This document shows positions 3,941 through 36,239 of a stretch of DNA of 39,723 nucleotides, one piece after another. How positions within the stretch are numbered: the first letter of the stretch is position 1; every line of letters begins with the position of its first letter. The translations under genes were made by a program, and so were the position numbers. The notes under the pieces were generated by a model that searched no databases, was not told where the DNA came from, and saw only the letters and a list, made by a program, of their open reading frames with translations. The DNA is taken from NCBI GenBank assembly GCA_023150895.1, contig JAKLJY010000075.1, positions 1 to 39,723 of the forward strand. The letters are read 5' to 3'. The DNA comes from Myxococcota bacterium (GTDB taxonomy: Bacteria; Myxococcota_A; Bradymonadia; UBA7976; UBA1532).

Positions 3941-3950
3941 CACGACGGGC

Positions 3951-5796: not shown

Positions 5797-5989
5797 GGCG
5801 TTCGATACCACGAAGCGCCGCGCGCGTCGAAGGCCGGGGTCCCGCCGCGGTGCCCGACACTCCCGACGCACGCCGTCGGATGCGTGTGCGCCGTGCGTCA
5901 TGCGCGCAGGTCGTGCCCCCGCACGCCCCTTGAATTCCACACCGGCCCGTGCGTCGATCCGGTCCTGATTCAACCGCGCGGGGGCCGCG

Positions 5990-8982: not shown

Positions 8983-9079
8983 CGCCGGCACCCCGGCCGC
9001 TCGCCCGCCTTGAATTTCCCGCGCCGCCGTGCGTCACTCCCCGTGCTGGCGTTGAACGGTCGACCGGAAGGCGGGGCGC

Positions 9080-10405: not shown

Positions 10406-10449
10406 CAGGAGACCGACCCATGACACACCCCGCCTCTGATTCGAAACAC

Positions 10450-11535: not shown

Positions 11536-11549
11536 CCCCCCCGTCCCGC

Positions 11550-13484
11550 TCACCCCTCGACGGAGCGGCGCAGACGGCCGCGCAGGGCGGCGGGGACGGT
11601 GTGGTTCGTCAGGATGGCATCGGCGAGCAGGACGGCGGTCTCGGCGTCGAGGCCGGCGCGTTCGACGAAGGCCGTGGCGGCGGGCAGGGCCTCGGCGCGC
11701 AGGCCGCCGCGGCGGGCGAGGGTGAGCAGGGCGTCGACCGTGGCGGGGTGGGGGCCGCGGGCCTGCAGCGCGTCGAGGGCGCGGGCCTGCACGGGGCCGG
11801 CGGCGTCGTCGAGGCGGGCGACGAGAGCGGCGGTGGCGGCGGGCTCGGGGCGCTGCGCGAGGGCGTCGACGGCGGCGAGGCGGACGCCGGCGTCGTCGTC
11901 GGCGGCGAGCGCCACGAAGCGGTCGAGATCGACCGGCTGCCGGGCGTTCTGAAGGGCGCGGGCGGCGTGTTTGCGGTCCTCCGGGGTGGCCGCCGCGTCG
12001 AGGGCGCCCCGCAGGGTCTCCACGGCGGCGACGGCGGCCGCGTCCGTCCCGGGACCGCCCGCGTCGCGCAGCCGCGCGCCGGCGACGGCGCCGAGTGTAT
12101 AGGCCGCGGTGTGATGTCGCAGCGAATCACCCGCCGCGTCGGTCAGGCCCCGCGCCGCAAGGGCGAGCGTCGCAGCCTCGGGGTGACGCACCAGGCTCAG
12201 GCGTTGCCACAGGGCCGGCGCAGCCTCCGGATCGGCCGTGGCGGCCCCGGACGTCAGCGCGGTGCGCAGCGCGGCCTGCGCGGCCTCGGTGCCGGCGGCC
12301 GCCAACAGATCGGCGATGAGCGCGCGTTCGGCGGTGCCGGTCGTCTCGGCCTCGAAGCGCCCGGCGAGGGCCGCGCACAGCGCCGGATCGAGCTGCAGAC
12401 GGGCCACGGCACGCCACAGGAACGCCCGGTGATCGGGCCCGGCACCCCGCGCGCCGAAGGCGTCGAGCGCGGCGAGGAGGGCCTCCGCCGTCAGCCCGCC
12501 GGCCTGCCCCTCGGCGGCCCGGCGCGCGGCGTCGTCGGAGAACCGGGGGGCGTCGAGCGTCTCGGCGACGAGGTCGGCCTCGGGGGTCCGCCGGGGGGCC
12601 TCGCGCACGGCGCGCAGGGCGAGGCGGGCGCGGGTCGAAGCGGTCAGAAGCGGCGCGCCGGTCGACAGATGGACGGCGAGGGTCTCATCGACGTCGAGCG
12701 CCGCGAGGTACCCCGCCGGGTCGAGGGCGATCCGGGCGGTGTGTTGCAGGGACGGCGCGGCGGCTGCGCCCGGGGCGTGCCGCAGGCGCTCGATGCGCCG
12801 TTCGCGGTCGTACGTCAGGGGGCCGTCGGCGCGTCGGTAGGTCGACACGAAGCGGCCGAGCTCGGTGTGTTCCTCGCGGTCGAACTGCGCGGCCAGCGCC
12901 CCCGGCGGAATGGACACGCCGAGAGCGCCGACCATGTGTCGCATCATGTGTCGATACTCGGACGGAGTGTCGCGGGTGAATCGCAGCTCGACGAGCGCCC
13001 CGTCCGGTCCGAGCAGCAGGTGGGCCTCGTGCCCGGTCAGCAGCGCGGCGGCGGACTCGGCGTCCCCGAGGAGGGGGCGCCCCTGCAGGGTGGCCGTCAC
13101 GGCGCTCAGCTCGGTGAGGCGCAGCGACACTCGATGGCACTCGTCCTCGCCTTCGCCCTCGCGCCCGAGGCCCTGCAACACGAGCTGCCCGGCGAGGTGG
13201 GCAACGCCCTGCAGTGTCGAGGCGCTCCCGGCCGCCGCCTCGTCGCCGGCTGCGGCCGCCCCGAGGCCGTCGAGGCCGTGCGCCTGCCGCGCCGTGTGTT
13301 CGAAGTCATAGACGAGCACGCGATCCTCGGGGAAAGCGAACCGGAAGGTCGCGGCCTCGGGCGGCCGGACGGCAGCCGGCGAATCCGTCACGCCGCGGCC
13401 GACGACGACGTGCAGCGCGGCGGCGCCGGCGAGGAGCCCGGCGGCGAGGAAGAAGGTCATCAGGGGGGCGGCGTGACGTTTCAT
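11550..13484 (-). CDS. Secreted HEAT/PBS-lyase-like repeat protein
   Basis: Signal peptide MKRHAAPLMTFFLAAGLLAGAAAL. The C-terminal half has repeated (D)xxVRxxAxxALxxxG units (DDDAGVRLAAVDALAQ, AAGPVQARALDALQARG…), typical of HEAT-like repeats. It lies immediately downstream of, and co-oriented with, the 13516..15900 gene. Confidence 0.5.
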   Translation of the reverse strand: MKRHAAPLMTFFLAAGLLAGAAALHVVVGRGVTDSPAAVRPPEAATFRFAFPEDRVLVYDFEHTARQAHGLDGLGAAAAGDEAAAGSASTLQGVAHLAGQLVLQGLGREGEGEDECHRVSLRLTELSAVTATLQGRPLLGDAESAAALLTGHEAHLLLGPDGALVELRFTRDTPSEYRHMMRHMVGALGVSIPPGALAAQFDREEHTELGRFVSTYRRADGPLTYDRERRIERLRHAPGAAAAPSLQHTARIALDPAGYLAALDVDETLAVHLSTGAPLLTASTRARLALRAVREAPRRTPEADLVAETLDAPRFSDDAARRAAEGQAGGLTAEALLAALDAFGARGAGPDHRAFLWRAVARLQLDPALCAALAGRFEAETTGTAERALIADLLAAAGTEAAQAALRTALTSGAATADPEAAPALWQRLSLVRHPEAATLALAARGLTDAAGDSLRHHTAAYTLGAVAGARLRDAGGPGTDAAAVAAVETLRGALDAAATPEDRKHAARALQNARQPVDLDRFVALAADDDAGVRLAAVDALAQRPEPAATAALVARLDDAAGPVQARALDALQARGPHPATVDALLTLARRGGLRAEALPAATAFVERAGLDAETAVLLADAILTNHTVPAALRGRLRRSVEG

Positions 13485-13515
13485 GGTCTGTCTCCTGGCG
13501 GTTTGGGCGAGAGGG

Positions 13516-15900
13516 TCAGTTGCGGTCGAGCAGGTCGTTGACGGCGCCGACGTCGATGAGGCTGACGTCGACGGGGAAGTCAAGGTCGAACAGCGTCTCT
13601 TTCAGCGTCGGGCCGACCCAGCGGAACAGATCGATCTCCGCGCACAGCTCCGTGACCAGGAGTTCGATGCAGCCGAAGAGCTGAATGGCCCCGGAGAGCG
13701 TACGCAGCAGCATGTCGAGCCGCACGCCGCCGTTGAACACGACGTCGGCTGCGGCCGGGATGCCGGGCCGCGCCGCCCGCGGGCGGTACGTCACACCGAC
13801 CTCGCCCACGAGGGGCAGGTGCGCGGTCACGAGCTCCAGGATGCCCTTGATGCCGACGGTGACGATCAGCGCATCGATGTAGACGCGGGCCCAGGCGTTG
13901 GCCTCGGCGTACGGCTCGACGGTGCCCTGAATGTGGGCGCTCGCGCCGGCCGCGCAGATGGACTGCGGGTTGTACGCGGCCGAGAGTGCCAGGTCGACGT
14001 CCGTCTCGAGCCCCACCGCCGCGGAAAGGCCGCCGTCGACGCTGACCGGGACGCCGAGGATGAAGAACGTGACCTTCGGCGCGAACCCGCGCGGCACGAG
14101 GTCCTCGCGGAAGTCAGGAGTGTCGATCACGTTGAAGGTGTGGGCGACGGTCAACTGCTGCGGCGTGCGTTGCGCGGTGTAAACGGAGATGCCCAACAGA
14201 CTCAGCGCGACGTCGACGCCCGTCACGGCCGGGTTGGCGTCGACGCGGGCGTCGACGAGGTCGAGCGTGCCACCCAGGACGCGGGCGCTCGCCGCGAGCT
14301 CGCCGCGCAGGTAGGGCTTGGCCATGCAGACGTCCGGCGCGAAGTCGGTGACGCCCCAGGCCGCTTCGTAACTGTAATTCAGGCCGAAATACTCGTTGCC
14401 GAGCGCGGCCGAGTCGCCGACGGCGTCGTCGGTGCGGACCCGACGCTCGGCCGGATCGACCGGCAGCTCGCCGAGCAGGCGGTTGAGGTACAGCTCGCGC
14501 AGCGCCTGAAAGTACAGTGGGCGCAGTCGCATGAACTCGCGCACGAGGGTCGGCGTGCCTGCGTAGTCCCGCTCGGGGAAACGAATGTTGCCGGCGGCGT
14601 CGCGGATCACGTTGCCGTTCTCGTCGCGGAACCGGGGCGCCGACACGGCGGCGAATTCGTCGCCGATGATGGTCTCGCACGCAGCGGCGGCGCCGTTGCG
14701 CGCCGCGTCGACGGCCGACAGGATGCGGGTGAATGCGGACGGCGCCCAGTCACAGGGCGTCGGCACGCTCGGATCCGCCGGTCGGCAGCCCATCGCCTCG
14801 GCGGCGACGAGCGCGGCTTCGATCTCCTGCTCGAGGAAGGCCCGGCGGGCGCCGAGCTCGTCGAGTTCGAGCGCGGCGAGGTCGCCCGGCGAGAAGCCGA
14901 ACTCGCCCCCGCGGAAGTCGTCGACGGGCGCGACACGCTCCTCGCCGAGCGCGTCGAGCGTCGCGAGCTCGACCTGCGTCAGCCCGGCGAGCAGGGCGCC
15001 GAACCGCCCGGCGAGCGCGTACCCCGCCTCGAGCTGCGCGTCGGTGAAGCCCGCCCGGCGCAGGGCCGCCGACTGATCGCGGTGGTAGGCGAAACTCTCG
15101 ACCGCAAAGGGCTGCGCGGCCTCGTGACACCCGGCGATGCGCAGCGCGGGCACGTTCTCCTCGGAGGCCCGCAGGTGCTGATAGAACGTGTTCTTCGGCA
15201 CGCACGACCGGAAGGGCAGGACGACGGGCACCGCGGCTCCGGTCCGGTCGACGATGGGACGGGTGCCAATCCCGCCGGCGGCGAACGCGGCGTCGACGAG
15301 CGCGCGCGGATCGTTGCGGCTCGCCGCGGGCAGTGCCTCCTCCCAGCGGTTGTAGTCATAGAACGCCTCGAACACATACTCGTCGCAGGTGTCCGAGCGG
15401 GCGCCGTCGCCGCCATACAGGAAGTCGCCGGTCACCCGGAACGCCGGCTGCGCGGGGGCGATGACACCCGGCGGGGCGCCCTCCTGTCGCAGCCGGTTCT
15501 CGTAAAGGCTCAGTCCGCCGTTCAGGTACCGCCCCGAGCCGCTGCGGTCCGTGGCGACGACGTTCTTCACGGGGCCGCCGACGCAGGCCTCGAGCTCGCC
15601 GACGGGGCCGGCGACGGCCGGGTCCCGGCGGGCGCCGCCGCAGAGATCCGCCGGCCGGGTCGGCTGCCCCTGCGCGAGGCGCTGCGCCTCGGTGCGGAAG
15701 AGCGCGTCGCACGTCGCCCGGTTGCGGACGCCGCAGGTCGAGGTCAGGTAGCCGGCGCGCTGGCAGTCCGCCAACTTCGGGACGACACACAGGGTCGGCG
15801 GGCGGATGACCGTCAGCGCGGCGGAGGCCGGGCCGGCGAGGCCGGAAAGGCAGGCGACGCCGGCAAGCAGCGCGAGGGAGGTCGACAGGGGTGACTTCAT
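13516..15900 (-). CDS. Large secreted hypothetical protein (about 795 aa), no recognised domain
   Basis: Signal peptide MKSPLSTSLALLAGVACLSGLAGPASA. Long clean ORF with ordinary composition and multiple Cys pairs. The frame is distinct from the overlapping Arg/Pro-rich artefact ORFs. Confidence 0.55.
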   Translation of the reverse strand: MKSPLSTSLALLAGVACLSGLAGPASAALTVIRPPTLCVVPKLADCQRAGYLTSTCGVRNRATCDALFRTEAQRLAQGQPTRPADLCGGARRDPAVAGPVGELEACVGGPVKNVVATDRSGSGRYLNGGLSLYENRLRQEGAPPGVIAPAQPAFRVTGDFLYGGDGARSDTCDEYVFEAFYDYNRWEEALPAASRNDPRALVDAAFAAGGIGTRPIVDRTGAAVPVVLPFRSCVPKNTFYQHLRASEENVPALRIAGCHEAAQPFAVESFAYHRDQSAALRRAGFTDAQLEAGYALAGRFGALLAGLTQVELATLDALGEERVAPVDDFRGGEFGFSPGDLAALELDELGARRAFLEQEIEAALVAAEAMGCRPADPSVPTPCDWAPSAFTRILSAVDAARNGAAAACETIIGDEFAAVSAPRFRDENGNVIRDAAGNIRFPERDYAGTPTLVREFMRLRPLYFQALRELYLNRLLGELPVDPAERRVRTDDAVGDSAALGNEYFGLNYSYEAAWGVTDFAPDVCMAKPYLRGELAASARVLGGTLDLVDARVDANPAVTGVDVALSLLGISVYTAQRTPQQLTVAHTFNVIDTPDFREDLVPRGFAPKVTFFILGVPVSVDGGLSAAVGLETDVDLALSAAYNPQSICAAGASAHIQGTVEPYAEANAWARVYIDALIVTVGIKGILELVTAHLPLVGEVGVTYRPRAARPGIPAAADVVFNGGVRLDMLLRTLSGAIQLFGCIELLVTELCAEIDLFRWVGPTLKETLFDLDFPVDVSLIDVGAVNDLLDRN

Positions 15901-16118
15901 GGGATGGCAGCTCCTGGGTGCATGGCTCTGAGAGGGCCCGGCGCGGCATGCGTCGGTGTGAAGGAGCCCCTTTTCACGGGGCGTGCCAATGCGTCCCATC
16001 GTCGGAGAACCGCACGGCGGGCGCAGATCGGCCGGCGTCCGCCCCCGCGGGGGACGGGCGCGGCTCGTGTGTCCCATGGGGTGTCACCGGGACACGCGCC
16101 GAGGGATTCAGCGCTGCG

Positions 16119-16628
16119 TCAGGGGGTCGACCGTGTCGAAAGCACCGCCGCGCAGGCCGGGTCGCTCGCGGCGAGCACGGCGAAGCGGTCGCGGGGGTCC
16201 GGCACGCGCCCGCCCGCCTCGACCGCCAGCGCGGCGTTGCGGCAGGCCACCGAGCGCGCACCCGACAGACCCTCGCGGTGGAGCTCCGGCAAGGGGCCGG
16301 GCGTGACGAGAAGCAACGCGGCCTCGAGGAACCCCGCGGCGGCCGCGTCGAAGGCTTCGCGCTCGAAGGCCCGCGCGGCGTCGGCATGCGTCGCCTCGGC
16401 CTGCGCCCAGGACGCCGGGCGGGGGGGCGGCCCGTCCGGGGCGGCGAACGAGAACAGGGACACGCCCGAAGCCGCCGGTGCGAGCGTGTCTGCGGCCGAC
16501 TCGCCCACGGCCGGTCGCGCGCCGCAGCCCGGCGTCGAAGTCAGCGCGAAGGCGGTCGCGAGAACGACAACGAGAACGAAGACCGGGCCGCGCGTCAGTC
16601 CTTCAAGTGTTCGCCGTCGTCGAACCAC
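16119..16628 (-). CDS. Possible small exported protein (GTG start) immediately downstream of the HExxH/PG-binding gene
   Basis: A GTG start gives MVRRRRTLEGLTRGPVFVLVVVLATAFALTSTPGCG…, a positively charged n-region followed by a hydrophobic core. It overlaps the last ~11 codons of the upstream gene in another frame. It could also be a GC-rich artefact. Confidence 0.25.
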   Translation of the reverse strand: MVRRRRTLEGLTRGPVFVLVVVLATAFALTSTPGCGARPAVGESAADTLAPAASGVSLFSFAAPDGPPPRPASWAQAEATHADAARAFEREAFDAAAAGFLEAALLLVTPGPLPELHREGLSGARSVACRNAALAVEAGGRVPDPRDRFAVLAASDPACAAVLSTRSTP

Positions 16629-18634
16629 TTCTTGACCTTGGGATACTGATCCGTGAGGAACTCGGGGTCGTTCTTCCAGAGGGTGAAACACTCGGCGTAC
16701 CACTCGCCCATGCCTTCCGCCTTGGCGTACTGCGTGGGCGGGGTGAGCTTCTCCTTGCCGACGAAGGCCCGAAATTTGGCGAGCCGCTTCGACTCGGACT
16801 TCGCGCCGCCGGTGACCTTGGCGTCGGCCTCCGTCTTGGCCTTTTCCTGAGCTTTGTGCGCGGCGACGCGGGCCTCGCAGGCCGTGCCCCACTCGTCGAC
16901 GCGGTCGTTGGCGTCCTTGAAGAGGCCGAGTGCGGCGTGGGTGGCCGACTTCGCCGTGAGATCCGTGCGGGCGGTGTCGCGTTTCGTTTTGGCCGTCTGT
17001 GCGGCGGTGACGAGCTTGTCGTGCTGCGCGACCGTCGAGTTCTTGGCGACCGCGGCCCAGGCGTTCGTGAGGGCGAGGCTGGCGTTGGCGAAGGCCATGC
17101 CCGTCTTCTGCTGGTCTTTGGGCAACGCGACGAACCCGTCGCGCGCGCTCTTCATGGCGGCGCTCTGCGCCGTGTTCGTCGTGTTGACCTTGTCCACGGC
17201 CGCGTTGTGGGCGGCCATCGCGTCGAACTTCGCGGCCGAGGTCTTGCGCTCCTCGGCGTGCTCGACGGCGTGCCCGACCTCGTGGAGGACGGTGGTGAAG
17301 CTGGCCTCGGCGGCGTCCGTCGCGCCGCCCACGAAGTTCACGCCGTCGCCCGCGAAGGCCGAGTCGGCGATGCTGAGCTTTTCGGCGTGCGTGGCTTTGT
17401 TGGCCCCCGTCGCGACGCCGTGGCTGTAGCTGAACTCACCGGCGAGCGAGTCGCCCTTGGCATTGACGATGGTGGACTCGCGCACGAGGTCGACCCCGGC
17501 GAGCGCGGACTTCTCGGCGCTGCCGACGCGCAGCAACGCGGCGTAGACCTTGTTGAGCTCGGGCAACGTCCACGTCGCCGAGCCGTCGACGACGGCCTTG
17601 AAGCCGAAGTCGGCCATCAGCCCCTTCTTGGCGGCGTCGAGGTCGGCGAACTTCTGTGCCGTGGTGACCTTGCCGGCGCCGATGAGCTTCGTCTCGGCGT
17701 TGCCCTCGCCGTCGAGGCGCATCGTGACCTTGCCATCGGGCCGGGGGCCGCCGCCCTTGGGTGTGTACCCGACCTTGGTCTGCAGGTCGACCTCGCTGGC
17801 GAAGCGCTTCTTCTCGCCGAGCTGCGCGGTGACGTTCAACAGATGCGCCCCGAGCGCGTCGTCGCCGCCATCGACGGCCTTGACCGTCTTGCCGAGATCA
17901 CCGGCCTGCTGCTTGGCCTCGACGTTCTTCTGAACCGTCGCCTTTTTCGTGCCCTCCGCGGGCGGGGTGACCGTCGTGACCGCGGTGTCGTACATGAGCA
18001 CCTTGGCGCCGGCCCCGCCCCCACCGCCGGCCCCACCGCCGCCGCCCTCGGCCTTGCCCACCGAGACGGGGCCGTCGAGCGAGCCCCACGTCTTCGGGCC
18101 GATGATGGCATCGGGCGACAGCGCGTGGTTGTTCTGATACTCGACCGTGGCCGCGCGCGTTTTCGGGCCGAAGAGGCCGTCGACCGCCAGCGCGGGCGTC
18201 GCGCCGTGCGCGTTCAGGCGCTCCTGCGCGTATTCGACCTCGGCCCCGGCGCTGCCCTGCCGGATGACCTTGCGTTTCTCCGGGGGCACGGCCGCCACGC
18301 CCGTCGGCGTCGCCGCGACCTCGGGGGCGGCGGGGGCGTCGGGCACCAGCGCGTTCAAGGGGACGGTCGCGTCGGCGTCCTCGCTCGTGCTGAAGCCGCT
18401 CTCTCCCTGTGCCTCACCCGAGCCGGCCTCCAGCAGGGCGACCTCGTCTTCGGCGTCCGCGGGGCCCGCCGCGGCCCCGGCTTTGGGCGCCTGCGGCCCC
18501 GCCTTGGCGAGCCCGGCCAGGTAGCGCCGCTGGGCGCCGGCGGCGGCCTGGTGCTGCGCGTCGGCCAGGGGGCCGGGCGCGCGGGCCACGCCATTGGGCT
18601 GCTTCAGGGCGGACGTCTCGCGGGTCTTCTGCAC
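16595..18634 (-). CDS. Peptidoglycan-binding-domain protein with an HExxH zinc-metallopeptidase-like domain (Lys-rich, no signal peptide)
   Basis: PG_binding_1-like segment (EVEYAQERLNAHGATPALAVDGLFGPKTRAATVEYQNNHALSPDAIIGPKTWGSL). Gly-rich linker (GGGGGAGGGGGAGA). TTVLHEVGHAVEH is an HExxH zincin motif, possibly DUF4157-like. The protein is strikingly K-rich and R-poor compared with its neighbours, and the N-terminus is not hydrophobic. Confidence 0.6.
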   Translation of the reverse strand: MQKTRETSALKQPNGVARAPGPLADAQHQAAAGAQRRYLAGLAKAGPQAPKAGAAAGPADAEDEVALLEAGSGEAQGESGFSTSEDADATVPLNALVPDAPAAPEVAATPTGVAAVPPEKRKVIRQGSAGAEVEYAQERLNAHGATPALAVDGLFGPKTRAATVEYQNNHALSPDAIIGPKTWGSLDGPVSVGKAEGGGGGAGGGGGAGAKVLMYDTAVTTVTPPAEGTKKATVQKNVEAKQQAGDLGKTVKAVDGGDDALGAHLLNVTAQLGEKKRFASEVDLQTKVGYTPKGGGPRPDGKVTMRLDGEGNAETKLIGAGKVTTAQKFADLDAAKKGLMADFGFKAVVDGSATWTLPELNKVYAALLRVGSAEKSALAGVDLVRESTIVNAKGDSLAGEFSYSHGVATGANKATHAEKLSIADSAFAGDGVNFVGGATDAAEASFTTVLHEVGHAVEHAEERKTSAAKFDAMAAHNAAVDKVNTTNTAQSAAMKSARDGFVALPKDQQKTGMAFANASLALTNAWAAVAKNSTVAQHDKLVTAAQTAKTKRDTARTDLTAKSATHAALGLFKDANDRVDEWGTACEARVAAHKAQEKAKTEADAKVTGGAKSESKRLAKFRAFVGKEKLTPPTQYAKAEGMGEWYAECFTLWKNDPEFLTDQYPKVKKWFDDGEHLKD

Positions 18635-18717
18635 GGGGGCTCCAACGGGTGACGGGGGACGACATCAGATAGCGCGCGGGCGGGCGGCTGTCGAGGGGGG
18701 GGGCGCCGGCGGCCTTC

Positions 18718-21700
18718 TCACCGGTCGGGGCGCTGGGTCACCCGGATGGCACCGATCTCGGCTTTGCCCGCCCCGGCGCGGTTGACGAATCGCACGTCGA
18801 GCCGGCCGTCGGTGACGGGCACCAGGAAACGCCGGTGCTCCGCGGTGAACGTGCCGACCTCGAGCGCGATGTCATGGGCGGGCAGGAGCACGATGTCTTC
18901 GGCGATGACATCGAAGAGATGCGCGCCCGGCCGCTTGTTGACGATCTCGGCGAACAGCAGCTCGACCTCGTAGGTCCCGCTCGGCAGGCCGTCGAACCGG
19001 TACGCCGTGGGATCGCGGCGCAGGTTCTTGTACAGGGCGTCGTCCTCGGTGCCGGCGATGGCGCGGGCCGTCGCCACCGACGTCGACTTCTTGTTGATGT
19101 AGCCGAAGCCGCGAGCGACCGTGTACGGCGCGTCTGCCTCCCAGACGTCACCCACGACGTCCGTGTACAGGCCGCCGCCCGGGTTGAGCGCCTTCGTGAA
19201 GGCGGGCACGTTCAGCGTCACCGGGATCTCCAGTCTCGGATTGCGCGGGTCATTGGTCACGAGAACGATGCGTGCGCGGTAGAAGCCGGGAGACATGCCC
19301 GTCGTGTCGACGGTGATGGCCAGGTCGGTGCTGGCGCCCGCCTCGACGGTCCCGCGGGCGGGGTCGAGGGCGAGCCAGGGTACGTCCACGAAGGGCTCGA
19401 ACGCGGCGGCGTACGGGATGGCGTTCTCCAGGATGCGGTTGGGCTCCCACGGTGAAACCTGGTTGAACTCCATCGGCTGCCCGAGCGCCAGCACACGGCC
19501 GGCGCCGTAGTCGTATTCGACGCCCGTGGGCAGGCCGTGATCCAGGCCCATCGTCAGCACGGTGGCGCCTTCGGGCAGGCCATCGAAGCCCGCCATGCTC
19601 GCCGGGCCGGCCTCGAAGGGATCGGCGACGCCCTGCATCGTCGGGTGGCCGTTGGCGAGCACGTCATCGGAGAAGCTCTGGTACGTCAGGATGCCGACCC
19701 CGCCCGGCAGCGGCACGACCGAGCCGTCGCCCCCGTTCCAGCCGACGGAGGCCGCGCCGTAGAGCAGAAACCCGCCGTCGGCGACATAGGCGTCGAAGAC
19801 GGGGGCGACCTGGGCCAACGTGTCATAGAAGAACTGGGGTTGGTCGTTGGCCACGTAGACCATGCCGTAAGTGGACAGGTCGAGGCCGGCGAGTTCGGCG
19901 CTGCCCGCGATGTCGACGCGGATGCCGTTGGCGTTGAACACCTGCAGGTGGAGGTCGGAGTTCCAGGGGTAGTAGTCCATGAGCACCAGCGCGTCGCCCC
20001 CGGCCTGCGCGGCGGCGGCCGAGCGGGGCTGGTACTGCGGGGGCGGCGTCGCGGCATCGCCGTGTCCGGCTTGGGCCACGCGCGGCGCGAGGGCGGGCAC
20101 GCGCGCCACGTCTCGCTCGGCGGAGTCGAAGGCAAACGACAGCGCGCCGATGTTCTCGATGGCGACGACCTGCGTGCGCTGCTGTCCGGGCGCAATCTTG
20201 AGGAAGATCTCGGGCGTCTCGAGGACGGCGCGCGAAGAAGGCAGCGCGAAGTCCGCCGAAGCCACTGCGTTCTCCTCGATGATCGCGACGAGGCTCTCCG
20301 TGCCATAGTCCGGTGCGGACACGGTGAGGGCGTGCGAGCCGACCGGCAGCGTCAGGCTGTAACGGCCGTCGACACCGGTCACGCTCGCCCGGCCGGTCAC
20401 GTCGTCACTGACGATGGCGCCACTCACGGGCAGCCCGTCCACGCCGTCGACGACGGCGCCGGCGATCTCACCACCGATCGGGTTTGCGAACGAGATGACG
20501 AGCCCGTCGAACAGCACCGGCTGGTTCATCGAGTACTGGAAGCCGACGTCTCCGGCGGCGTTCTCGAGGCCGACGGTGGCGCCGATCCCGTTGGTGGTCT
20601 CCGTGATCCCCCGGTAGAGGAAGTCGATCCGCCCCGTGTGCTCATGGATCTGTACCTGGAAGTCGAATGGGTCGACCGACTGACCGAAGAGCACCATCGA
20701 GCGGTATTCGACGACGAAGACGCGGTCGCCCTCGACCCCCACGACCGTCGAGTAGACGCCGCCGTTCGCGACGAGGTCGTCCCAGTAGGGGAAGAGGGCG
20801 TTGTTCGGCTCTTCCGGGGACGGCAGCGGGCCGTTGACGTAGCTGAAGGCACCCGAAGCGTCGAAGCTGATGGTCCCATTCGTCGAAATCGTCGCCGACG
20901 TGTAGGTCCCGTCGAAGAACTTCACCGGGAACGGCAGCTCGACGGTGACGGCGGCGTCGTCCAGGGAGGACAGGCCGAGATCCGTGTCCGCGTCGATCCA
21001 GGCGACGTCGCCGCCGGTTCGGCAGGTGTGCCCGAAAGCGTCGGTGCGCTGCGCGAGGTGCAACCCCACCTCCAGGTCGGCCGCGAGCGAGACCGCGCGC
21101 TCACCGCGGTCGGTACATCCGCCGCCCGAGGCGGCGACGACGTAGTCTCCGGCGGGCAGGTCCGGGAAGCTGAATCCGCCGGTGGCGTCCGTCCGCACGG
21201 TCGGGACGGGTGCCCCCACGAGGCTGACGTCGATGCCCCCGAGCGGCGTGCCGGCCGCGTCGGTCACGGTGCCCGACAACGTATGGCGCGGCGCGTCGGC
21301 GAGCACGAGCAGGACCGTGACCTCGCCATCCTCGACGATGGCGAGGCCGGCCTCGGCGGCGGGCAGGTACCCGTAAGCCGTGGCAGACAGGTCGTAGATC
21401 TCCGGCTCACCGGCGCTGGCCTCGTCGACGGCAAGCAGCAGCGAGAAGGCCCCGGCGCCGTCCGTGACGGCACGGCGCACGCGGCCGTCGTCGCGTCGCG
21501 TGGCCACGAGCTGCACACCGGCGAGACCCGCGCCGGTCGGGTCGGTGACCTGCCCCGATACGCGCCCCGCCGTGGTCGGTGCCGCGTCGAGCGCCGCGCG
21601 CACGTCCAGACGGCCCTCGCCGAACTCGTTGTTGTCGGCCTCGTCGCCCCCGCAGCCGTAGACCGGCGCCAGGTCCGCGGCCGTCGACTCGAGCAGCGCG

Positions 21701-23001
21701 GCGGTGCCGGCGACGTCGCCTTGCAGGCTCGGAGCGGCGGACCACAGGAGCGCGATCGCGCCGCTCACGTGGGGGGCGGCCATCGAGGTGCCCGACAACC
21801 ACGAGTACCCACCGCCGGGCACGGACGACAAGACATCCTGCCCGGGGGCGGAGATGTCGGGCTTCAGCGAGCCGTCGATCGACGAGGGGCCCATGCTCGA
21901 GAACCAGGCGAGTGCGTCCGTGGTGTCCGTCGCGCCGACGCCGATGGATTCCGGGTAGTCCGCGGGCGAGCCGACGGTGCTGCACCCCGGCCCGCTGTTG
22001 CCGTTGGAGAACACGGGGAAGATGCCGGCGTCGCGCCAGGCCTGCACGATGCCCTGGAAAAAGAGATCACCGCCGCCGCCGCCCCAGGAGTTGTTGATCA
22101 CATGGGGCGCGCGGGCCGGATCGGGGTTGAGCCCGTTCTCGTCCGTGGGCGCGAGCATCCACTCGCCCGCGGCGAGCAGCACGTCGTACGGACAACTGCC
22201 ATAGGGGCAGGCCACGGCCGCGATGAACTTCGCGCCCGGCGCGACGCCGATGGCAGTGCCCCCCGCGTCGTCACCCACCATCGTCCCCATCGTGTGCGTG
22301 CCGTGAATGTCGGTATCACACGGCGCGCCCCCGCAGGCGCCGGAGGGGTCGAAGAAGTTGTAACCCATGCCGGGCGTGGCCGGGTCGTGTCCGCGAAAAC
22401 GACCGGAGAGCGCGGGGTGACTCACGTCGATCCCCGTGTCGAGGCTGCCGATCACGATGCCTTCGCCCTGGCCGAACTGGCTCCATGCCTCGGGCGCCCG
22501 GATCCGGTCGAGGTTCCACTCGGCCGGACTGGCGGCCACCTTGCCGAGGTCCACCGGACGCGGCACGGTGAGGACGCGGTCGGCCACGATGGCCGCCACG
22601 TCGGCGCGGCGCGCGAGCGTGTCGAGCAGCGCGGCGTCGCCCTCGACCTTGATGGCGTTGTTGATGAAGAAGCTCTTGTGCGGCGCCCGGGCCTGCAACA
22701 AGGCGGCCCGGACGCCCGCCTGCGTCCGGTCGGCGTTCGCTCTCAGGGCGTCGCGTGCGGCCCGGACGCGGCCGCCGTGCGTGCGCTCGGCCTGCGCCGC
22801 GGCGAGGTCCGGGCGCCCCCGCACCAGCACCCAGAACTCGCCCTTGCCCGCGCCGAGCCGTTCGCGCAGACCCGCCTCCACGGTGGCCCGCTCCATGGCG
22901 GCCGGGGCCGCCTGGGCCATCGCGCCCGATGGGACGGACACGAGTGTACTCGTCGAACACAGGGCGGCTGCGAGCGCAGCGGCGCCTTTCCACGTCTTCA
23001 T
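18718..23001 (-). CDS. Secreted S8-family subtilisin-like serine peptidase (1427 aa) with an N-terminal propeptide, CarbopepD_reg-like β-sandwich repeats and C-terminal carbohydrate-binding-like domains
   Basis: Signal peptide MKTWKGAAALAAALCSTSTLVSVPSGAMA. Catalytic triad motifs are SLDTGID (Asp), HGTHTMGT (His) and GTSMAAPHVSGA (Ser). Repeated 'GxVTDxxGxPLxGxxV' units are typical of carboxypeptidase-regulatory-like domains. The C-terminal region is malectin/CBM-like. Confidence 0.85.
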   Translation of the reverse strand: MKTWKGAAALAAALCSTSTLVSVPSGAMAQAAPAAMERATVEAGLRERLGAGKGEFWVLVRGRPDLAAAQAERTHGGRVRAARDALRANADRTQAGVRAALLQARAPHKSFFINNAIKVEGDAALLDTLARRADVAAIVADRVLTVPRPVDLGKVAASPAEWNLDRIRAPEAWSQFGQGEGIVIGSLDTGIDVSHPALSGRFRGHDPATPGMGYNFFDPSGACGGAPCDTDIHGTHTMGTMVGDDAGGTAIGVAPGAKFIAAVACPYGSCPYDVLLAAGEWMLAPTDENGLNPDPARAPHVINNSWGGGGGDLFFQGIVQAWRDAGIFPVFSNGNSGPGCSTVGSPADYPESIGVGATDTTDALAWFSSMGPSSIDGSLKPDISAPGQDVLSSVPGGGYSWLSGTSMAAPHVSGAIALLWSAAPSLQGDVAGTAALLESTAADLAPVYGCGGDEADNNEFGEGRLDVRAALDAAPTTAGRVSGQVTDPTGAGLAGVQLVATRRDDGRVRRAVTDGAGAFSLLLAVDEASAGEPEIYDLSATAYGYLPAAEAGLAIVEDGEVTVLLVLADAPRHTLSGTVTDAAGTPLGGIDVSLVGAPVPTVRTDATGGFSFPDLPAGDYVVAASGGGCTDRGERAVSLAADLEVGLHLAQRTDAFGHTCRTGGDVAWIDADTDLGLSSLDDAAVTVELPFPVKFFDGTYTSATISTNGTISFDASGAFSYVNGPLPSPEEPNNALFPYWDDLVANGGVYSTVVGVEGDRVFVVEYRSMVLFGQSVDPFDFQVQIHEHTGRIDFLYRGITETTNGIGATVGLENAAGDVGFQYSMNQPVLFDGLVISFANPIGGEIAGAVVDGVDGLPVSGAIVSDDVTGRASVTGVDGRYSLTLPVGSHALTVSAPDYGTESLVAIIEENAVASADFALPSSRAVLETPEIFLKIAPGQQRTQVVAIENIGALSFAFDSAERDVARVPALAPRVAQAGHGDAATPPPQYQPRSAAAAQAGGDALVLMDYYPWNSDLHLQVFNANGIRVDIAGSAELAGLDLSTYGMVYVANDQPQFFYDTLAQVAPVFDAYVADGGFLLYGAASVGWNGGDGSVVPLPGGVGILTYQSFSDDVLANGHPTMQGVADPFEAGPASMAGFDGLPEGATVLTMGLDHGLPTGVEYDYGAGRVLALGQPMEFNQVSPWEPNRILENAIPYAAAFEPFVDVPWLALDPARGTVEAGASTDLAITVDTTGMSPGFYRARIVLVTNDPRNPRLEIPVTLNVPAFTKALNPGGGLYTDVVGDVWEADAPYTVARGFGYINKKSTSVATARAIAGTEDDALYKNLRRDPTAYRFDGLPSGTYEVELLFAEIVNKRPGAHLFDVIAEDIVLLPAHDIALEVGTFTAEHRRFLVPVTDGRLDVRFVNRAGAGKAEIGAIRVTQRPDR

Positions 23002-23199
23002 GGCATTGCTCCTCGGGCGCCGCCTCGAAGCGGGCCCTCAATTGGAACCTGGCGACCGCCGGACCCTCCGGTGGTGCGCTCGGTCTGACCTCAGGAGCCC
23101 GTACTCGAAATCACCCCGCGCTCTTCTCGGGCGGGCGACGTTTTTCGTCCTCGGTGGCGATTTCGAAGCGTGCCCCGAGCGCCCGCGGTCCGGCCTGGA

Positions 23200-23493
23200 T
23201 CAGGATTTCGGCGTGCGGTTCGTCTGCGTTTCGGGTGGCGCGGACGTCGGTGGCGCGGCGTCCGCGGCCGAGAGCGCGGCAAAGCGCTTCAGAAGCTCGG
23301 CCTTGATGTCCGGCGGCATGGGCTCGGGCGGCAACTGACCGACCGTCTGAGCGGCGAGGCGCATCTGGCGGAGGTAGGCCCGGCAGGGGTGGCACATGCC
23401 CAGGTGGAACTGCACCTCGAGTCGCCGCCAGAACGACATGCGCCCTTCGGCGTAGTCGGTCACGATCTCGGTGAGTTCTCGGCAGCTCAGCAT
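23200..23493 (-). CDS. Anti-sigma factor, zf-HC2 (putative zinc-finger) family
   Basis: MLSCRELTEIVTDYAEGRMS…FHLGMCHPCRAYL contains the H-x3-C-x2-C zinc motif of ChrR/RsrA-like anti-sigma factors. It lies 4 bp downstream of the ECF sigma gene on the same strand. Confidence 0.7.
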   Translation of the reverse strand: MLSCRELTEIVTDYAEGRMSFWRRLEVQFHLGMCHPCRAYLRQMRLAAQTVGQLPPEPMPPDIKAELLKRFAALSAADAAPPTSAPPETQTNRTPKS

Positions 23494-23497
23494 GGCG

Positions 23498-24157
23498 TCA
23501 CTTCTTCTGGAGGAACTGTTCGAGCGCAGCCCGGACCCGGGTGCGCGCGCGGTGCAGCAGCACGCGCTGATTGATCTCGGAGATTTCCAGAATGTTACAG
23601 ACTTCTTCGCTCGTCGCGCCTTCGAGATCGCGCAGCGTCAGCACGGCGCGCTGCGCGGGCGGGAGCGCGTCGATCGCCGCGCCGATGACCTCGGCCGCGC
23701 CCCGGGTGGCGAGCAGCGACTCCGGCGTGTCCTGCACCCAGTCGGCGGGCGGTGAGGCCCAGTGACCGCCGGCCTTGAAACGGGCCGCGTCGACGGCGGC
23801 GGCCACGTCCCCGTCGGCCTCGACGAGCGCCGAGAACGGCACGTCGCGGCCATCCCGGCGGGCGCGGCTGCGCGCCTGATTGACCAGGATGCCGTAGATC
23901 CAGGTCTTGAGGCGCGCCCGGGGCTCGAAGCGCGGCAGACCGGCGATGACCCCGATCCAGGTCTCCTGCACGGCGTCTTCGGCGGCGGCACGATCGCGCA
24001 CGAAGACCTGTGCCAGGCGGACCATCGGGCCGTGGTGGCGATCGACGAGCGTCGCGAACGCCTGCGCATCGCCGCCGCGCAGGCGGGCGAGCAGCGCGAG
24101 GTCGTCGTCGGGCGTCGAACTGGGCGGGCGGGTGGTCACGGCGTAGTACGCGCGCAT
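23498..24157 (-). CDS. ECF-subfamily sigma-70 RNA polymerase sigma factor
   Basis: Region 2 (DDDLALLARLRGGDAQAFATLVDRHHGPMVRLAQVFVRDRAAAEDAVQETWIGV) and region 4 (LPPAQRAVLTLRDLEGATSEEVCNILEISEINQRVLLHRARTRVRAAL) are present. Start at MRAYYAV…, set by frame arithmetic. Confidence 0.85.
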   Translation of the reverse strand: MRAYYAVTTRPPSSTPDDDLALLARLRGGDAQAFATLVDRHHGPMVRLAQVFVRDRAAAEDAVQETWIGVIAGLPRFEPRARLKTWIYGILVNQARSRARRDGRDVPFSALVEADGDVAAAVDAARFKAGGHWASPPADWVQDTPESLLATRGAAEVIGAAIDALPPAQRAVLTLRDLEGATSEEVCNILEISEINQRVLLHRARTRVRAALEQFLQKK

Positions 24158-24230
24158 CGTGAAACGCGCGCCGAGGTCTGCCAAGGTCTTTCGTTCGCGT
24201 CCGTCGACGAGGGTTGGTACAGTCCCCCGC

Positions 24231-25649
24231 ATGTACGATTACGACTGGTTGGTCATCGGCTCCGGCCCCGCCGGCGAGAAGGGCGCCGTCCAGGCGGCGT
24301 GGTTCGGGCGCCGCGTGGCGGTGGTCGAGCGCGCGCCGGCGCACGGCGGGGCGTGCGTCCACACGGGCACGCTGCCGAGCAAGACGCTGCGCGAGACGGC
24401 CCTCTACCTCTCCGGGCACCGCCAGCGCGAAATGTACGGCCTCGACGTGCACCTGCAGCGCGATGTCTCCGTGAGCGATCTCATGTGCCGTCAAGCGGCC
24501 GTCCTCGGCAACGAAGCCGCCCGCATCGCGCGCAACTTCGAGCGCCACGGCGTGACGCAGCTTCGGGGCCACGCCGATTTTGTCGACGCGCACACCGTCC
24601 GCATCACGCCGCCCGAGGGCGCGGGGGCGCCCTACACGGTCACGGCCGACGCCATCCTGATTGCGACGGGCACGCGGCCGTTCCGCCCGGCGTGGGTGCC
24701 CTTCGGCGACCCGGGCATCGACTGCTCGGACACCATCCTGAACCTCGACCGCATCCCGCGCGCGATGGTGGTGCTCGGCGGGGGCGTGATCGGGTGCGAG
24801 TACGCCTCGATCTTCGCCGCCCTCGGCACGCGCGTCACCCTCGTCGAGGGGCGCGAACAGATCCTGGGCTTCCTGGACCCGGAGATCAACGCGCGGCTGT
24901 CGTCGGCGCTCGAGGCGCTCGGCTGCGAAATTCTGCTGAAACGCGAGGTCGTGCGCGTCGGGCGCGACGGCGACGGCACGCTCGTCTGTACGCTGGCGGA
25001 CGGGCGCGCGCTGCCGTGCGAGCGTCTGCTCTTCGCGGGCGGGCGCTCGGGCAACGTGGAGGGGCTCGCCCTGGAGAACGCCGGGATCACGCACGGGCCG
25101 CGCGGCCTGCTGAGCGTCGACGCGAACTACCGCGTGCAGAGCGCGCACGGCGGGCGCATCTACGCCGCGGGTGACATCATCGGCTTCCCGGCGCTGGCGT
25201 CGGTGGCGATGGAGCAGGGACGCGTCGCGGCGTGTCATGCCTTCGAACTCGGGTACAAGAGCGCCGTGTCGCCGCTGTTCCCCTATGGGCTCTATACCAT
25301 CCCGGAGGTGGCCACCATCGGCGAGACCGAGGCGCAGGCGACGGCTCGCGGCGAGGTGGTCGAGACCGGGCGGGCGTCCTACGGCGACAACGCCCGCGGT
25401 CAGATCGTGGGCGATCTGCAGGGGCTTCTGAAGGTGGTCTTCCGCGTGGCGGACAAGCGCTTGCTCGGCGTTCACATCATCGGTGAGCGGGCCACCGAGC
25501 TCGTGCACGTCGGCCAGACGGTGATGGCCCTCGACGGCACCATCGACACGCTGGTGCATCAGGTCTTCAACTTCCCGTCGCTGGGCGAGCTCTACAAGTA
25601 CGCCGCCTACGACGGCCTCGGGCGGCTCGCGCGGCGGGGGGCGAAGTGA
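24231..25649 (+). CDS. sthA: Soluble pyridine nucleotide transhydrogenase (Si-specific NAD(P)+ transhydrogenase)
   Basis: Collinear with E. coli SthA: MYDYDWLVIGSGPAGE (FAD GxGxxG), RVAVVER, GTLPSKTLRE, VLGGGVIGCEYASIF (NAD GxGxxG), YAAGDIIGFPALAS, LYTIPEVATIGETE, and no redox-active disulfide CxxxxC. Size is about 472 aa. Confidence 0.85.
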   Translation: MYDYDWLVIGSGPAGEKGAVQAAWFGRRVAVVERAPAHGGACVHTGTLPSKTLRETALYLSGHRQREMYGLDVHLQRDVSVSDLMCRQAAVLGNEAARIARNFERHGVTQLRGHADFVDAHTVRITPPEGAGAPYTVTADAILIATGTRPFRPAWVPFGDPGIDCSDTILNLDRIPRAMVVLGGGVIGCEYASIFAALGTRVTLVEGREQILGFLDPEINARLSSALEALGCEILLKREVVRVGRDGDGTLVCTLADGRALPCERLLFAGGRSGNVEGLALENAGITHGPRGLLSVDANYRVQSAHGGRIYAAGDIIGFPALASVAMEQGRVAACHAFELGYKSAVSPLFPYGLYTIPEVATIGETEAQATARGEVVETGRASYGDNARGQIVGDLQGLLKVVFRVADKRLLGVHIIGERATELVHVGQTVMALDGTIDTLVHQVFNFPSLGELYKYAAYDGLGRLARRGAK

Positions 25650-27532
25650 ACGCTCTCCTGCGGCGCGCGATGGGTGTGTTCGTCGTCGTGGGGATGCAGG
25701 CCTGCACCGAGACTTCGAGCGACACATCGACAAGTGCAGACGCGGCGCGGCCCGACGACGCTCGCTCCGTTCCGGAAGACACCATCGACCGCGGCCCGCC
25801 GGCGTCCGGAACGGACGGGTCGAACGACGCGCGCGTGGCGTTTGTCGATGCTCTCGACGCACCCGGCGCCGACGCTCGCGTGGTGCCCGACGCCGGTCCG
25901 CCCGTCGAGCCGGTCGATCCCACCGACCCCACCGACGCCGTCTTCGATTGGGACCATGTGATGACCGTCGAGGTGACGCTGCCCCCCGCGGACTGGGCGG
26001 CGCTGCGGCAACAGGGCCGCACGGATCTCGACACCCGTGGGGCGGACTGCATGGACGCGCCCTTTCCGTCGCCCTACACATGGTTCGAGGGCGACGCGAC
26101 CCTCGACGGGCGACCGTATGCCCGCGTCGGGGTGCGCAAGAAGGGCTTCTTCGGCTCGCTGAGCCGGTCGCGGCCGTCGCTCGTGCTCGATCTCGACCGC
26201 CACGTCGACGGGCAGGCGCACGAGACGCTGACCCGCATCGCCCTGAACAACGGCAAGCAGGATCCGAGTCGGCTGCGGACGTGCCTCTCGTACAGCATCC
26301 TCGCCGACGCGGGCGTGCCGGCGCCCCGGTGCCATTTCGCCCACGTCACGGTGAACGGCGAAGATCTGGGCCTGTACGCGCACGTCGAGAGCATCCGCAA
26401 ACCGTTCCTGCGCCGGCACTTCAGCGACGACGAGGGGCATCTGTACGAGGGGGCGCTGAGTGATTTCCGGCCCGGGTGGTCGGGCACCATCGAGCAGAAG
26501 ACCGACGAGGACGTGCCCCACCGGGCGCCGCTCGACGCCGTCACCGCGGCCGCCGCGGCCCCCGACGACACGCTGCTCGACGCGCTCGGCGCGGTGCTCG
26601 ATCTGCCGGCGTTCTATCGGTTCTGGGCGGCCGAGGTGATGATCGCGCACTGGGACGGGTACGCGGGCAATACGAACAACTTCTGGCTCTACGAGGACCC
26701 CGCGCAGGGGGGCCGCCTGGTCTTTCTGCCCTGGGGGCCGGACGGGGCGCTGCAGCCGCCCCGTGTGTTCTTCGAGGGGGCGATTGCGCCGGCGTCCGTC
26801 CTGGCGACGGGCATCCTCGCGCGCCGTCTGTACCTGCACCCCGAGGGTCGACGAGCGTATCTGACGACGCTGGCCCGCATGGTGGTCGATCACTGGTCGA
26901 CGGACGCGCTGCTCGCGCGGCTGGATCGCCTCGCCGCCCTCGTCGGGCCCCGTATGCCGCCCCAGCAACGCGCCGATCACACCCGCGCCGTCGCCGAGCT
27001 GCGGACGTGGGTCGCCGGGCAGCGCGGGCGACTCGAGGCCGAGCTCCTCCGGGGCGACGTGCCCTGGCCCTACCCGCTGCGGCCGTCGCTCTGCACGGTG
27101 CCCGCCGGTGAGCTGCACGGGGCGAGTCGGACGACCTGGGCCTCGTGGCCCACCGACGATGCATTTCGCTCGGGGTCGGGGCGTCTGGAGGGCACCTATC
27201 GCGACGTCCCGCTGGCCGTCCGGGCCGTGGGCGGCGCCGCAGGGCTCGACGAGAACGGGCAGGCCATCGCCCTCGTGCCCCTCTCGATGGCCGACGGTGC
27301 GCTCTGGTTCGTGTACCTCGCCTTCGACCGTGAACAGATCACGCCGGGCGAGCTCGACGCCGCGCAGTTGCCGGCCTGCTCGCTCAACGTCTTCGACGTC
27401 GAGACCGGCGCGGCGACCTACCTGGCGGACTGTCGTGACGGGCGACTGCGCATGACCGACGCCGCGCTCGTGCCGGGTGCCCCGTTTGCGTTCGAGTTCG
27501 ACGTCGGCCTCTGGGTGGGCCTCGGGCGTTGA
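25646..27532 (+). CDS. CotH-family (atypical kinase-like, spore-coat-protein-H-like) lipoprotein
   Basis: Lipobox VVVGMQAC. CotH signature blocks are present: NNGKQDPSRLRTCLSYSILADAGVP, VTVNGEDLGLYAHVESIRKPFLRRHF, HLYEG, AHWDGYAGNTNNFWLYEDP. The start overlaps the sthA stop (GTGA). The last ~30 codons are duplicated at 30338–30453. Confidence 0.65.
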   Translation: MNALLRRAMGVFVVVGMQACTETSSDTSTSADAARPDDARSVPEDTIDRGPPASGTDGSNDARVAFVDALDAPGADARVVPDAGPPVEPVDPTDPTDAVFDWDHVMTVEVTLPPADWAALRQQGRTDLDTRGADCMDAPFPSPYTWFEGDATLDGRPYARVGVRKKGFFGSLSRSRPSLVLDLDRHVDGQAHETLTRIALNNGKQDPSRLRTCLSYSILADAGVPAPRCHFAHVTVNGEDLGLYAHVESIRKPFLRRHFSDDEGHLYEGALSDFRPGWSGTIEQKTDEDVPHRAPLDAVTAAAAAPDDTLLDALGAVLDLPAFYRFWAAEVMIAHWDGYAGNTNNFWLYEDPAQGGRLVFLPWGPDGALQPPRVFFEGAIAPASVLATGILARRLYLHPEGRRAYLTTLARMVVDHWSTDALLARLDRLAALVGPRMPPQQRADHTRAVAELRTWVAGQRGRLEAELLRGDVPWPYPLRPSLCTVPAGELHGASRTTWASWPTDDAFRSGSGRLEGTYRDVPLAVRAVGGAAGLDENGQAIALVPLSMADGALWFVYLAFDREQITPGELDAAQLPACSLNVFDVETGAATYLADCRDGRLRMTDAALVPGAPFAFEFDVGLWVGLGR

Positions 27533-36115: not shown

Positions 36116-36239
36116 TCCTTCGTTTCAGGGCAATCGCCGCAACCATCGGCGGTTTGAGCGGACGGGGCAAGGCCCGGCGCGCGCGTCGGACACGGGGCGA
36201 CTTGCGACCGGGGGGCCGGCCCGGGCATCAGACCGGATC

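Follow-up and report, generated by a model that had tools for sequence, protein, structure and literature searches.

A row of genes read in one direction raises the question of whether it works as one unit. Such a row lies on contig JAKLJY010000075.1 of a Myxococcota bacterium (GenBank assembly GCA_023150895.1), of which we analysed a stretch of 39,723 nucleotides with about 72% GC, referred to below as the window. Its minus strand carries, in reading order, genes for an extracytoplasmic function (ECF) sigma factor, a zinc-finger anti-sigma factor, a very large S8 subtilase and a lysine-rich protein with an HExxH motif, whose 3' end is overlapped by a small open reading frame (ORF) on the same strand. 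A first-pass annotation had taken the four larger genes for a single envelope-stress-regulated module encoding a lytic or predatory protease pair. We found a different unit: comparison across relatives singles out the HExxH gene (the effector) and the small gene downstream of it (the partner). Our preferred interpretation, to which we give an even chance, is an autonomous two-gene effector-immunity cassette, in which a lethal factor (LF)-like zinc peptidase would be tethered to peptidoglycan, exported by a non-Sec route, likeliest through an extracellular contractile injection system (eCIS), and kept in check by a TPR-like lipoprotein inhibitor.

Shared strand and adjacency had suggested a module that does not exist as such, and comparison with near-identical strains resolved the question. 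One related contig (L007) aligns to positions 8380-18712 of the window with 94.4% DNA identity, and its synteny breaks 6 nt past the S8 stop codon; upstream of that point it carries HvfC, MbnB and DoxX genes instead. In a Bradymonadia metagenome-assembled genome (MAG; L008), whose effector orthologue is 85% identical at the amino-acid level, a CotH gene and a pyridine-nucleotide-disulfide oxidoreductase gene precede the HExxH gene, from which they are separated by some 1.5 kb of other sequence, with no sigma, anti-sigma or S8 gene at this locus. Likewise, the three genes are absent at L001/L009 (orthologue 70% identical in amino acids), where the HExxH gene and CotH are immediate neighbours in divergent orientation. 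Adjacency of S8 and the HExxH gene is confined to relatives of 96-100% identity: exact S8 copies with identical neighbours occur on four assembled contigs, one contig that is 96% identical at the DNA level retains S8 beside the HExxH gene, and a metagenome-contig search for close S8 relatives returned a single locus, at 96% DNA identity. More distantly, a Pfam scan of 79 genes flanking 16 related loci revealed no S8 or sigma family among the recurring ones; these flanks are mutually unrelated, with 108 Pfam families that each occur in at most 3 of the 79 proteins. Judged by gene order, the three upstream genes (sigma, anti-sigma, S8) are ordinary, strain-specific neighbours that are merely locally adjacent, and together they may represent a separate strain-specific insertion upstream of the cassette.

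What recurs is the pair. A hidden Markov model (HMM) of the partner matched in 33 of 77 loci, and in all 33 the matching gene lies directly downstream of the effector homologue on the same strand, often with a 4-nt overlap of start and stop. Pair-bearing genomes belong to Myxococcota, Actinomycetota, Cyanobacteria, Acidobacteriota and Verrucomicrobiota, and homologues of the small gene trail an HExxH homologue in Cellulomonas, myxococcotal, cyanobacterial and metagenomic loci. Because the two genes stay adjacent while the genes around them are unrelated, they form a unit independent of S8 and sigma, and we regard this predicted autonomous cassette as the conserved entity at the locus. The small overlapping ORF, which had been offered as a possible immunity or chaperone partner, thus proved to be a real conserved gene, plausibly one for immunity.

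The HMM scan bore out the expected PG_binding_1 domain of the effector, which scored above the curated threshold (Table 1), and profile searches of the PDB matched it to the peptidoglycan-binding domains of endolysins and SleB, with E values down to 2.9e-14. An AlphaFold2 model of the whole protein (mean predicted local distance difference test (pLDDT) score 84, well above 90 across most of residues 210-679) places an alpha/beta middle domain at about residues 213-330, followed by an LF/PPEP-like zinc peptidase domain (about residues 331-444 and 606-679) that is interrupted by a helical-bundle insert of some 160 residues (445-605). Among 25 homologues, H451, E452, H455, E644 and E648 never vary, and Y636 hardly does; this conservation of the five ligand and catalytic positions shows that the HExxH is no chance motif. 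When the insert was removed from the profile, the five best PDB matches were all anthrax lethal factor (best E = 0.001), with the aligned pairs HEvGHAV/HEFGHAV, LTeYA/LTSYG and EFYAEAY/EFFAEAF, and the modelled catalytic domain has the fold of LF domain IV or of PPEP-like enzymes. The Pfam model ATLF (PF07737) did not match the window protein even at E values up to 1, and gave weak matches in 9 of the 25 relatives (best E = 1.3e-4). We therefore classify the HExxH domain as a predicted divergent LF/PPEP-like (M34/ATLF-like) gluzincin that lies outside the curated ATLF family.

The zincin-type metallopeptidase proposed in the first-pass annotation is thus corroborated by conserved His and Glu ligands and by the LF alignment. 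Its likening to DUF4157 holds for the neighbourhood and not for the domain itself: PF13699 (now eCIS_core) has no match in the window protein, and some relatives carry DUF4157/eCIS_core within eCIS loci, where it is an additional N-terminal domain in 3 of the 25 close relatives and in many distant ones. The effector also lacks a Sec or Tat leader, its first 110 residues reaching a maximum Kyte-Doolittle(15) hydropathy of 0.83, compared with 1.73 for the S8 subtilase and 2.80 for the partner. Residues 1-107 are modelled as disordered and could serve as a loading or export signal. Both features agree with the earlier expectation of a protein that has no signal peptide and is directed to the cell envelope by non-Sec delivery. 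A phage or prophage origin and a role in anti-phage defence were considered and set aside: no relatives of the effector were found on viral contigs, and neither the two cassette genes nor those downstream gave a PADLOC match.

The partner, read from its upstream GTG, begins with a lipoprotein-type leader, VFVLVVVLATAFALTSTPGC, and continues into a helical domain; the leader accounts for the hydropathy maximum of 2.80. The start is GTG 16628 or GTG 16508, the only alternative, and the cysteine stands in a TPGC context that departs from the canonical L-[AS]-[GA]-C lipobox. Partners at 19 loci, mostly from diderm lineages, begin with a hydrophobic segment that leads into a cysteine, aligned at one column; actinobacterial and cyanobacterial partners lack this feature. 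This split between diderms and actinobacteria points to the compartment in which the enzyme would act. The model of the partner shows a helical TPR/MIT-like repeat (core pLDDT 71-95), a fold that serves as a scaffold for protein binding, and neither Pfam nor PADLOC gave a match. Two further cysteines, at residues 129 (CRNAALA) and 159 (DPAC), show no variation between the window partner and the three homologues closest to it. Many leader-bearing partners have at least one of the two, and neither occurs in the short actinobacterial partners linked to eCIS. A disulfide between them is conceivable and would agree with a periplasmic location. We conclude that the partner is a TPR-like protein that appears to be a lipoprotein; such a fold would be compatible with an immunity role, though it is not specific to immunity.

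Relatives of the effector connect the cassette to contractile injection systems. Full-length homologues with 42-45% identity lie inside eCIS loci at L003, L006, L014, L016, L021 and L023, together with genes for sheath, tube, a Pvc16 or gpI-like baseplate and, often, a Pvc15-like AAA+ protein. Across the 77 loci, structural eCIS genes occur within 10 kb in 13, a Pvc15-like AAA+ gene in 19, and any eCIS marker, DUF4157 counted, in 38. One homologue (P0018), 42% identical to the window protein and extended by an N-terminal eCIS_core, sits between genes for sheath, a gp19-type tube, Pvc16 and AAA+ proteins, and another (P0008) has as neighbours a P2-gpI-like baseplate gene and the gene of an eCIS_core protein of 1529 aa. 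A 614-aa relative from Algoriphagus sp. SE2 combines a disordered N-terminus, eCIS_core and the peptidase domain, and is placed directly after tape-measure and AAA+ genes. Within eCIS loci, a GxGNR(A/G)TIAxL motif is common to the disordered N-termini of relatives and to DUF4157 proteins encoded nearby. This parallels the system-specific loading sequences of AlgoCIS, whose disordered N-terminal domain is a loading signal common to the cargos of one system, with DUF4157 being dispensable (bioRxiv 10.64898/2026.05.27.728243; PMC8894135). Toxins of eCIS with peptidoglycan-binding domains have been predicted by machine learning (PMC11297309), and we found no functional study of such cargos in the eCIS literature consulted on these toxins. 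The host range also agrees, as Cellulomonas with DUF4255 and AAA is listed in the supplement of PMC11297309 and Algoriphagus is an eCIS host (PMC8894135). We do not claim orthology of the 614-aa relative to the AlgoCIS cargo Cgo1 (498 aa), only an architectural analogy; the 120 matches listed contain no protein of A. machipongonensis. An indexed search retrieved about 29 homologues, and an exhaustive profile search about 585 representatives (50% identity clusters) at E <= 1e-30; some of the latter match through repeated PG-binding domains alone. Taken together, the cassette is predicted to belong to a sizeable, uncharacterised and partly eCIS-associated family.

The spacer between the S8 and HExxH genes offers an explanation of how the cassette could be expressed independently. 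It contains a promoter-like element (Table 1) and, 5 nt ahead of the effector GTG, a GGAG Shine-Dalgarno sequence at 18643-18640. This segment begins exactly where the L007 synteny resumes, and it is kept in L007 and L008 although the upstream genes differ. Conservation of the spacer despite exchanged neighbours suggests a promoter belonging to the cassette itself, which is probably driven by it. The candidate scored under the threshold of a consensus promoter scan; this promoter and terminator scan was uninformative overall and gave no terminator-like site in the S8-HExxH spacer. As an aside, a run of nine C residues (18695-18703, minus strand) directly precedes the candidate -35 element; in L007 the run is one C shorter, and the synteny break with that contig falls just upstream of it.

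Of the three upstream genes, the sigma factor contains regions 2 and 4 only, with Pfam matches to Sigma70_r2 (3.4e-15), r4_2 (1e-11) and also Sigma70_ECF, and scores 83.7 bits against TIGR02937 (cut-off 42.9). Its neighbour matches zf-HC2 (6.9e-8, Pfam) and NCBIfam NF052368 (54 bits, cut-off 50), and its translation reads H30-x3-C34-x2-C37, an HxxxCxxC motif, so that the two have the make-up of an ECF sigma and zinc-binding anti-sigma (ZAS) pair, 4 nt apart as first described. The description of the subtilase was equally accurate: a Peptidase_S8 domain with intact triad motifs (DTG, HGTH and GTSMAAP in the translation), three CarboxypepD_reg beta-sandwich stretches and a C-terminal Malectin domain (residues 1271-1416, Pfam) follow a hydrophobic, signal-like N-terminus. 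Envelope-stress control, in turn, found no support. The anti-sigma factor has no transmembrane segment (maximum 19-residue Kyte-Doolittle hydropathy 0.51) and is predicted to be a soluble ZAS-type protein, which rules out direct sensing of the envelope, and a shared ECF promoter was not apparent: the regions upstream of the sigma, S8 and HExxH genes gave only GC-rich chance matches and have no GGAAC/CGT-type bipartite motif in common. A redox or thiol-stress link seems to fit the sigma and ZAS anti-sigma pair better. A pyridine-nucleotide-disulfide oxidoreductase gene (24159-25649, plus strand) is divergent from the sigma gene by about 75 bp; L008 keeps the oxidoreductase without any sigma pair, which counts against the redox link.

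The unusual composition of the effector, which had been called consistent with horizontal origin, was confirmed as such and received another interpretation. Lysine makes up 8.7% and arginine 3.1% of its residues, a K/(K+R) ratio of 0.74, while most other genes in the window stay at or below 0.30 and two fall in between, at 0.43 and 0.50. No other gene in the window has a GC content at third codon positions (GC3) as high as its 0.937, and AAG provides 49 of its 59 lysine codons. Many family members from hosts of 65-73% GC have K/(K+R) ratios of 0.45-0.79, and the Cellulomonas-type relatives are K-poor. With codon usage matching the neighbours and lysine richness recurring in relatives, we discarded recent horizontal transfer as the explanation; lysine richness is best described as a recurring trait of the family and no local anomaly. 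The lysines are distributed across the folded domains, and the protein is non-cationic, with a net charge of -3.

Put together, these observations suggest the following mechanism. The effector would be a zinc endopeptidase of M34/ATLF-like fold that PG_binding_1 would tether to peptidoglycan. By analogy with its relatives, it would leave the producer by a non-Sec route, likeliest as unfolded cargo of an eCIS particle encoded elsewhere in the genome, and would act in the wall or periplasm of a target bacterium by cleaving peptide bonds in a wall-associated protein or peptide. We propose that the partner is exported to the periplasm of the producer, where it would bind and block the peptidase and so protect the producer and its kin. 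Four links of this chain are inferred for the Myxococcota bacterium: that the effector is toxic, what it cleaves, that the partner inhibits it and how the effector is delivered. In its most specific form, in which an LF-like protease is injected by contractile particles into the periplasm of rival diderms and neutralized in kin by the lipoprotein, the proposal is possible, and we lean against relying on it.

Several points weigh against this interpretation. Gene callers picked the shorter partner start, which yields 129 aa and no leader, and full-length effector homologues without a detectable partner exist at L005, L017-L019 and L023. A TPR-like partner could act as a chaperone or adaptor instead of an inhibitor. 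PG_binding_1 also serves as a prodomain that does not bind walls in matrix metalloproteases, the known M34 enzymes cleave proteins, and we know of no M34 enzyme that acts on peptidoglycan. As to delivery, the window effector has neither DUF4157 (PF13699 scan) nor a recognizable GNR motif in its disordered residues 1-107, and the 39.7-kb window contains no sheath, tube, baseplate, Pvc16, Pvc15-like, T6SS (type VI secretion system) or other secretion gene. Moreover, the 19 loci whose partner is of the lipoprotein type all lack a structural eCIS gene within 10 kb.

The points on delivery speak for a reading in which the same effector-immunity pair travels by T6SS, outer-membrane vesicles, outer-membrane exchange or lysis, the eCIS link being irrelevant in this organism. 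A leaderless effector encoded with a periplasmic immunity lipoprotein is also the classic layout of wall-targeting T6SS pairs. We consider this rather unlikely, since PAAR, VgrG, Hcp, MIX/FIX and Rhs markers are missing from the effector, the window and the 79 neighbour proteins, whereas 6 of the 19 lipoprotein-partner loci have effectors with eCIS_core and the taxonomic spread of the family resembles that of eCIS hosts. Searches for T6SS or other secretion genes near the lipoprotein-partner loci found none that recur (79 neighbour proteins, 16 loci), and a second protein sharing the effector N-terminus was not found in the window. The modular build of the protein, with an N-terminal PG_binding_1 domain, C-terminal catalysis and no signal peptide, is in turn that of an endolysin, and the best structural matches of its binding domain are phiKZ gp144, the AP3 endolysin and SleB/SleC. 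The enzyme might then be an endolysin- or autolysin-like hydrolase that reaches the wall of its own producer through a holin-like or lysis path, for particle release or development, with the lipoprotein as a check, and Geller et al. have speculated that eCIS toxins might aid producer lysis (PMC8213781). This is a real competitor, which we regard as improbable in view of an LF/PPEP-like fold that belongs to no known wall-hydrolase family, the 107-aa disordered N-terminus and the 160-aa helical insert. Furthermore, no relatives were found on viral contigs, no holin or spanin recurs beside the scanned loci, and relatives are fused to DUF4157 or share N-terminal motifs with other cargo genes.

Least probable of all, in our view, is the original picture of an ECF-controlled envelope-stress operon of four genes, in which the S8 and HExxH enzymes cooperate as a lytic or predatory pair. 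Its appeal is understandable: the genes share a strand with gaps of 4 nt (sigma/anti-sigma), 198 nt (anti-sigma/S8) and 83 nt (S8/HExxH), the last spacer has no terminator-like site, the arrangement is retained at 96-100% identity, the closest MAGs are labelled Bradymonadia, and predation on other bacteria is described for members of the Bradymonadales. Against it stand the break in synteny with the 94%-identical L007, the 85% and 70% identical orthologues that lack all three upstream genes, the failure of these families to recur at 16 loci, the membrane-free anti-sigma factor, the missing common ECF motif and the conserved promoter-like element in the S8-HExxH spacer.

Table 1. Features of the effector-partner cassette and its upstream neighbours, in window coordinates
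Feature	Position	Strand	Description
HExxH effector	16595..18634	-	679 aa, GTG start; PG_binding_1 is its sole Pfam match
Disordered N-terminal region	18314..18634	-	codons 1-107; pLDDT 32-60; non-hydrophobic
PG_binding_1 (PF01471)	18077..18247	-	aa 130-186; 1.8e-10, 41.3 bits (cut-off 23)
HEVGH	17270..17284	-	aa 451-455; two zinc-binding His and catalytic Glu (predicted)
Y636...E644-W-Y-A-E648	16691..16729	-	Tyr and ExxxE third-ligand helix, LF-type gluzincin (predicted)
Partner gene	16119..16628	-	169 aa from GTG 16628; 34-nt overlap with effector 3' end
Candidate cassette promoter	18666..18694	-	TCGACA 18694-18689, 17-nt spacer, TATCTG 18671-18666
S8 subtilase	18718..23001	-	1427 aa; Peptidase_S8 3.8e-47, 161 bits, aa 179-463
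ZAS-type zinc-finger anti-sigma	23200..23493	-	97 aa; starts 4 nt past the sigma stop
ECF-type sigma-70 factor	23498..24157	-	219 aa from ATG 24157 (gene-caller start); ORF up to 24232

Around the cassette, a gene of the CotH kinase family (window 25646-27532, plus strand; L001 6684-8594; L008 4761-6740) is the sole neighbour retained across the window, L001/L009 and L008. The genes at 8380-16077, which encode a 794-aa protein, a HEAT-repeat protein and others, were considered as further cassette members and rejected, being syntenic in close relatives only. In L007, the effector gene (3418-5460) was called as three overlapping pieces of 93, 153 and 505 aa, reflecting either frameshifts or assembly errors, and beyond a Uma2 gene this contig carries a reverse transcriptase and bAvd, parts of a diversity-generating retroelement (13080-15460), where the window sequence differs. 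At two unrelated loci with a lipoprotein-type partner, an ORF of 1353 aa follows the partner at a short distance (L034 8571-12632 and L070 12778-16839). HYR and FG-GAP_3 are the sole families seen three times among the 79 neighbour proteins of the 16 loci.

Elsewhere in the window, an 844-aa vault-like protein (33590-36124, minus strand) combines a Major Vault Protein shoulder with Vault_3 repeats and has a K/(K+R) ratio of 0.43, above the local norm. Three proteins contain FGE-sulfatase domains (3-758, 790-3801 and 5969-8089, plus strand); two of them are fused to a caspase (Peptidase_C14), one of these with PEGA repeats. Flanked by FGE-sulfatase proteins, an AAA_21 ATPase (4546-6165, minus strand) matches the candidate defence protein HEC-01A (2.3e-54). 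A 672-aa protein (37149-39167, minus strand) carries ten Notch LNR domains (PF00066, 2e-69), which is unusual for a bacterium.

The family merits attention because no Pfam model matches its catalytic domain or its partner, while the catalytic motif, the wall-binding module and the cognate partner are clear. Activities or targets have been established for only a small number of eCIS cargos. If the most specific form of our proposal is right, the cassette would represent a new, widespread family of antibacterial effectors and carry the LF/PPEP protease fold into warfare at the cell envelope; it would also provide a defined bacteria-killing eCIS cargo with cognate periplasmic immunity, here in a lineage with Bradymonadia-labelled MAGs as its closest relatives.

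Four known systems resemble the cassette in different parts. With the endolysins phiKZ gp144 and AP3, the effector shares a PG_binding_1 domain N-terminal to the catalytic domain and the lack of a signal peptide; unlike them, it is no muramidase, transglycosylase, amidase or M15/M23 peptidase, is larger, has a disordered leader and is not phage-borne. The T6SS pairs Tae/Tai and Tse1/Tsi1 likewise place a leaderless wall-directed enzyme upstream of a small exported immunity protein in variable genomic contexts, but the window pair differs in its catalytic family, its TPR-like partner and the lack of any T6SS marker found. Anthrax LF and PPEP-1/2/3 (M34) have the same HExxH...Y...ExxxE arrangement and fold, to which the effector adds a 160-residue helical insert between the HExxH and Glu helices, PG_binding_1 and the disordered N-terminus; it has no protective-antigen-binding domain and no signal peptide, in contrast to the Sec-secreted PPEPs. 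Finally, eCIS cargos such as AlgoCIS Cgo1 and Cgo2 and the DUF4157-bearing eCIS-associated toxins (EATs) differ from the window gene, which is an orphan with no eCIS gene in 39.7 kb, lacks DUF4157 and has a dedicated partner that appears to be a lipoprotein. Like the window effector, they have a disordered N-terminal domain ahead of an ordered effector domain, and relatives of the window gene lie beside sheath, tube and AAA+ genes, some of them with DUF4157. Cgo1, a cargo of the AlgoCIS lumen, has been described with a C-terminal HExxH metalloprotease domain, and the relative from Algoriphagus sp. SE2 has the architecture described for it (PMC8894135).

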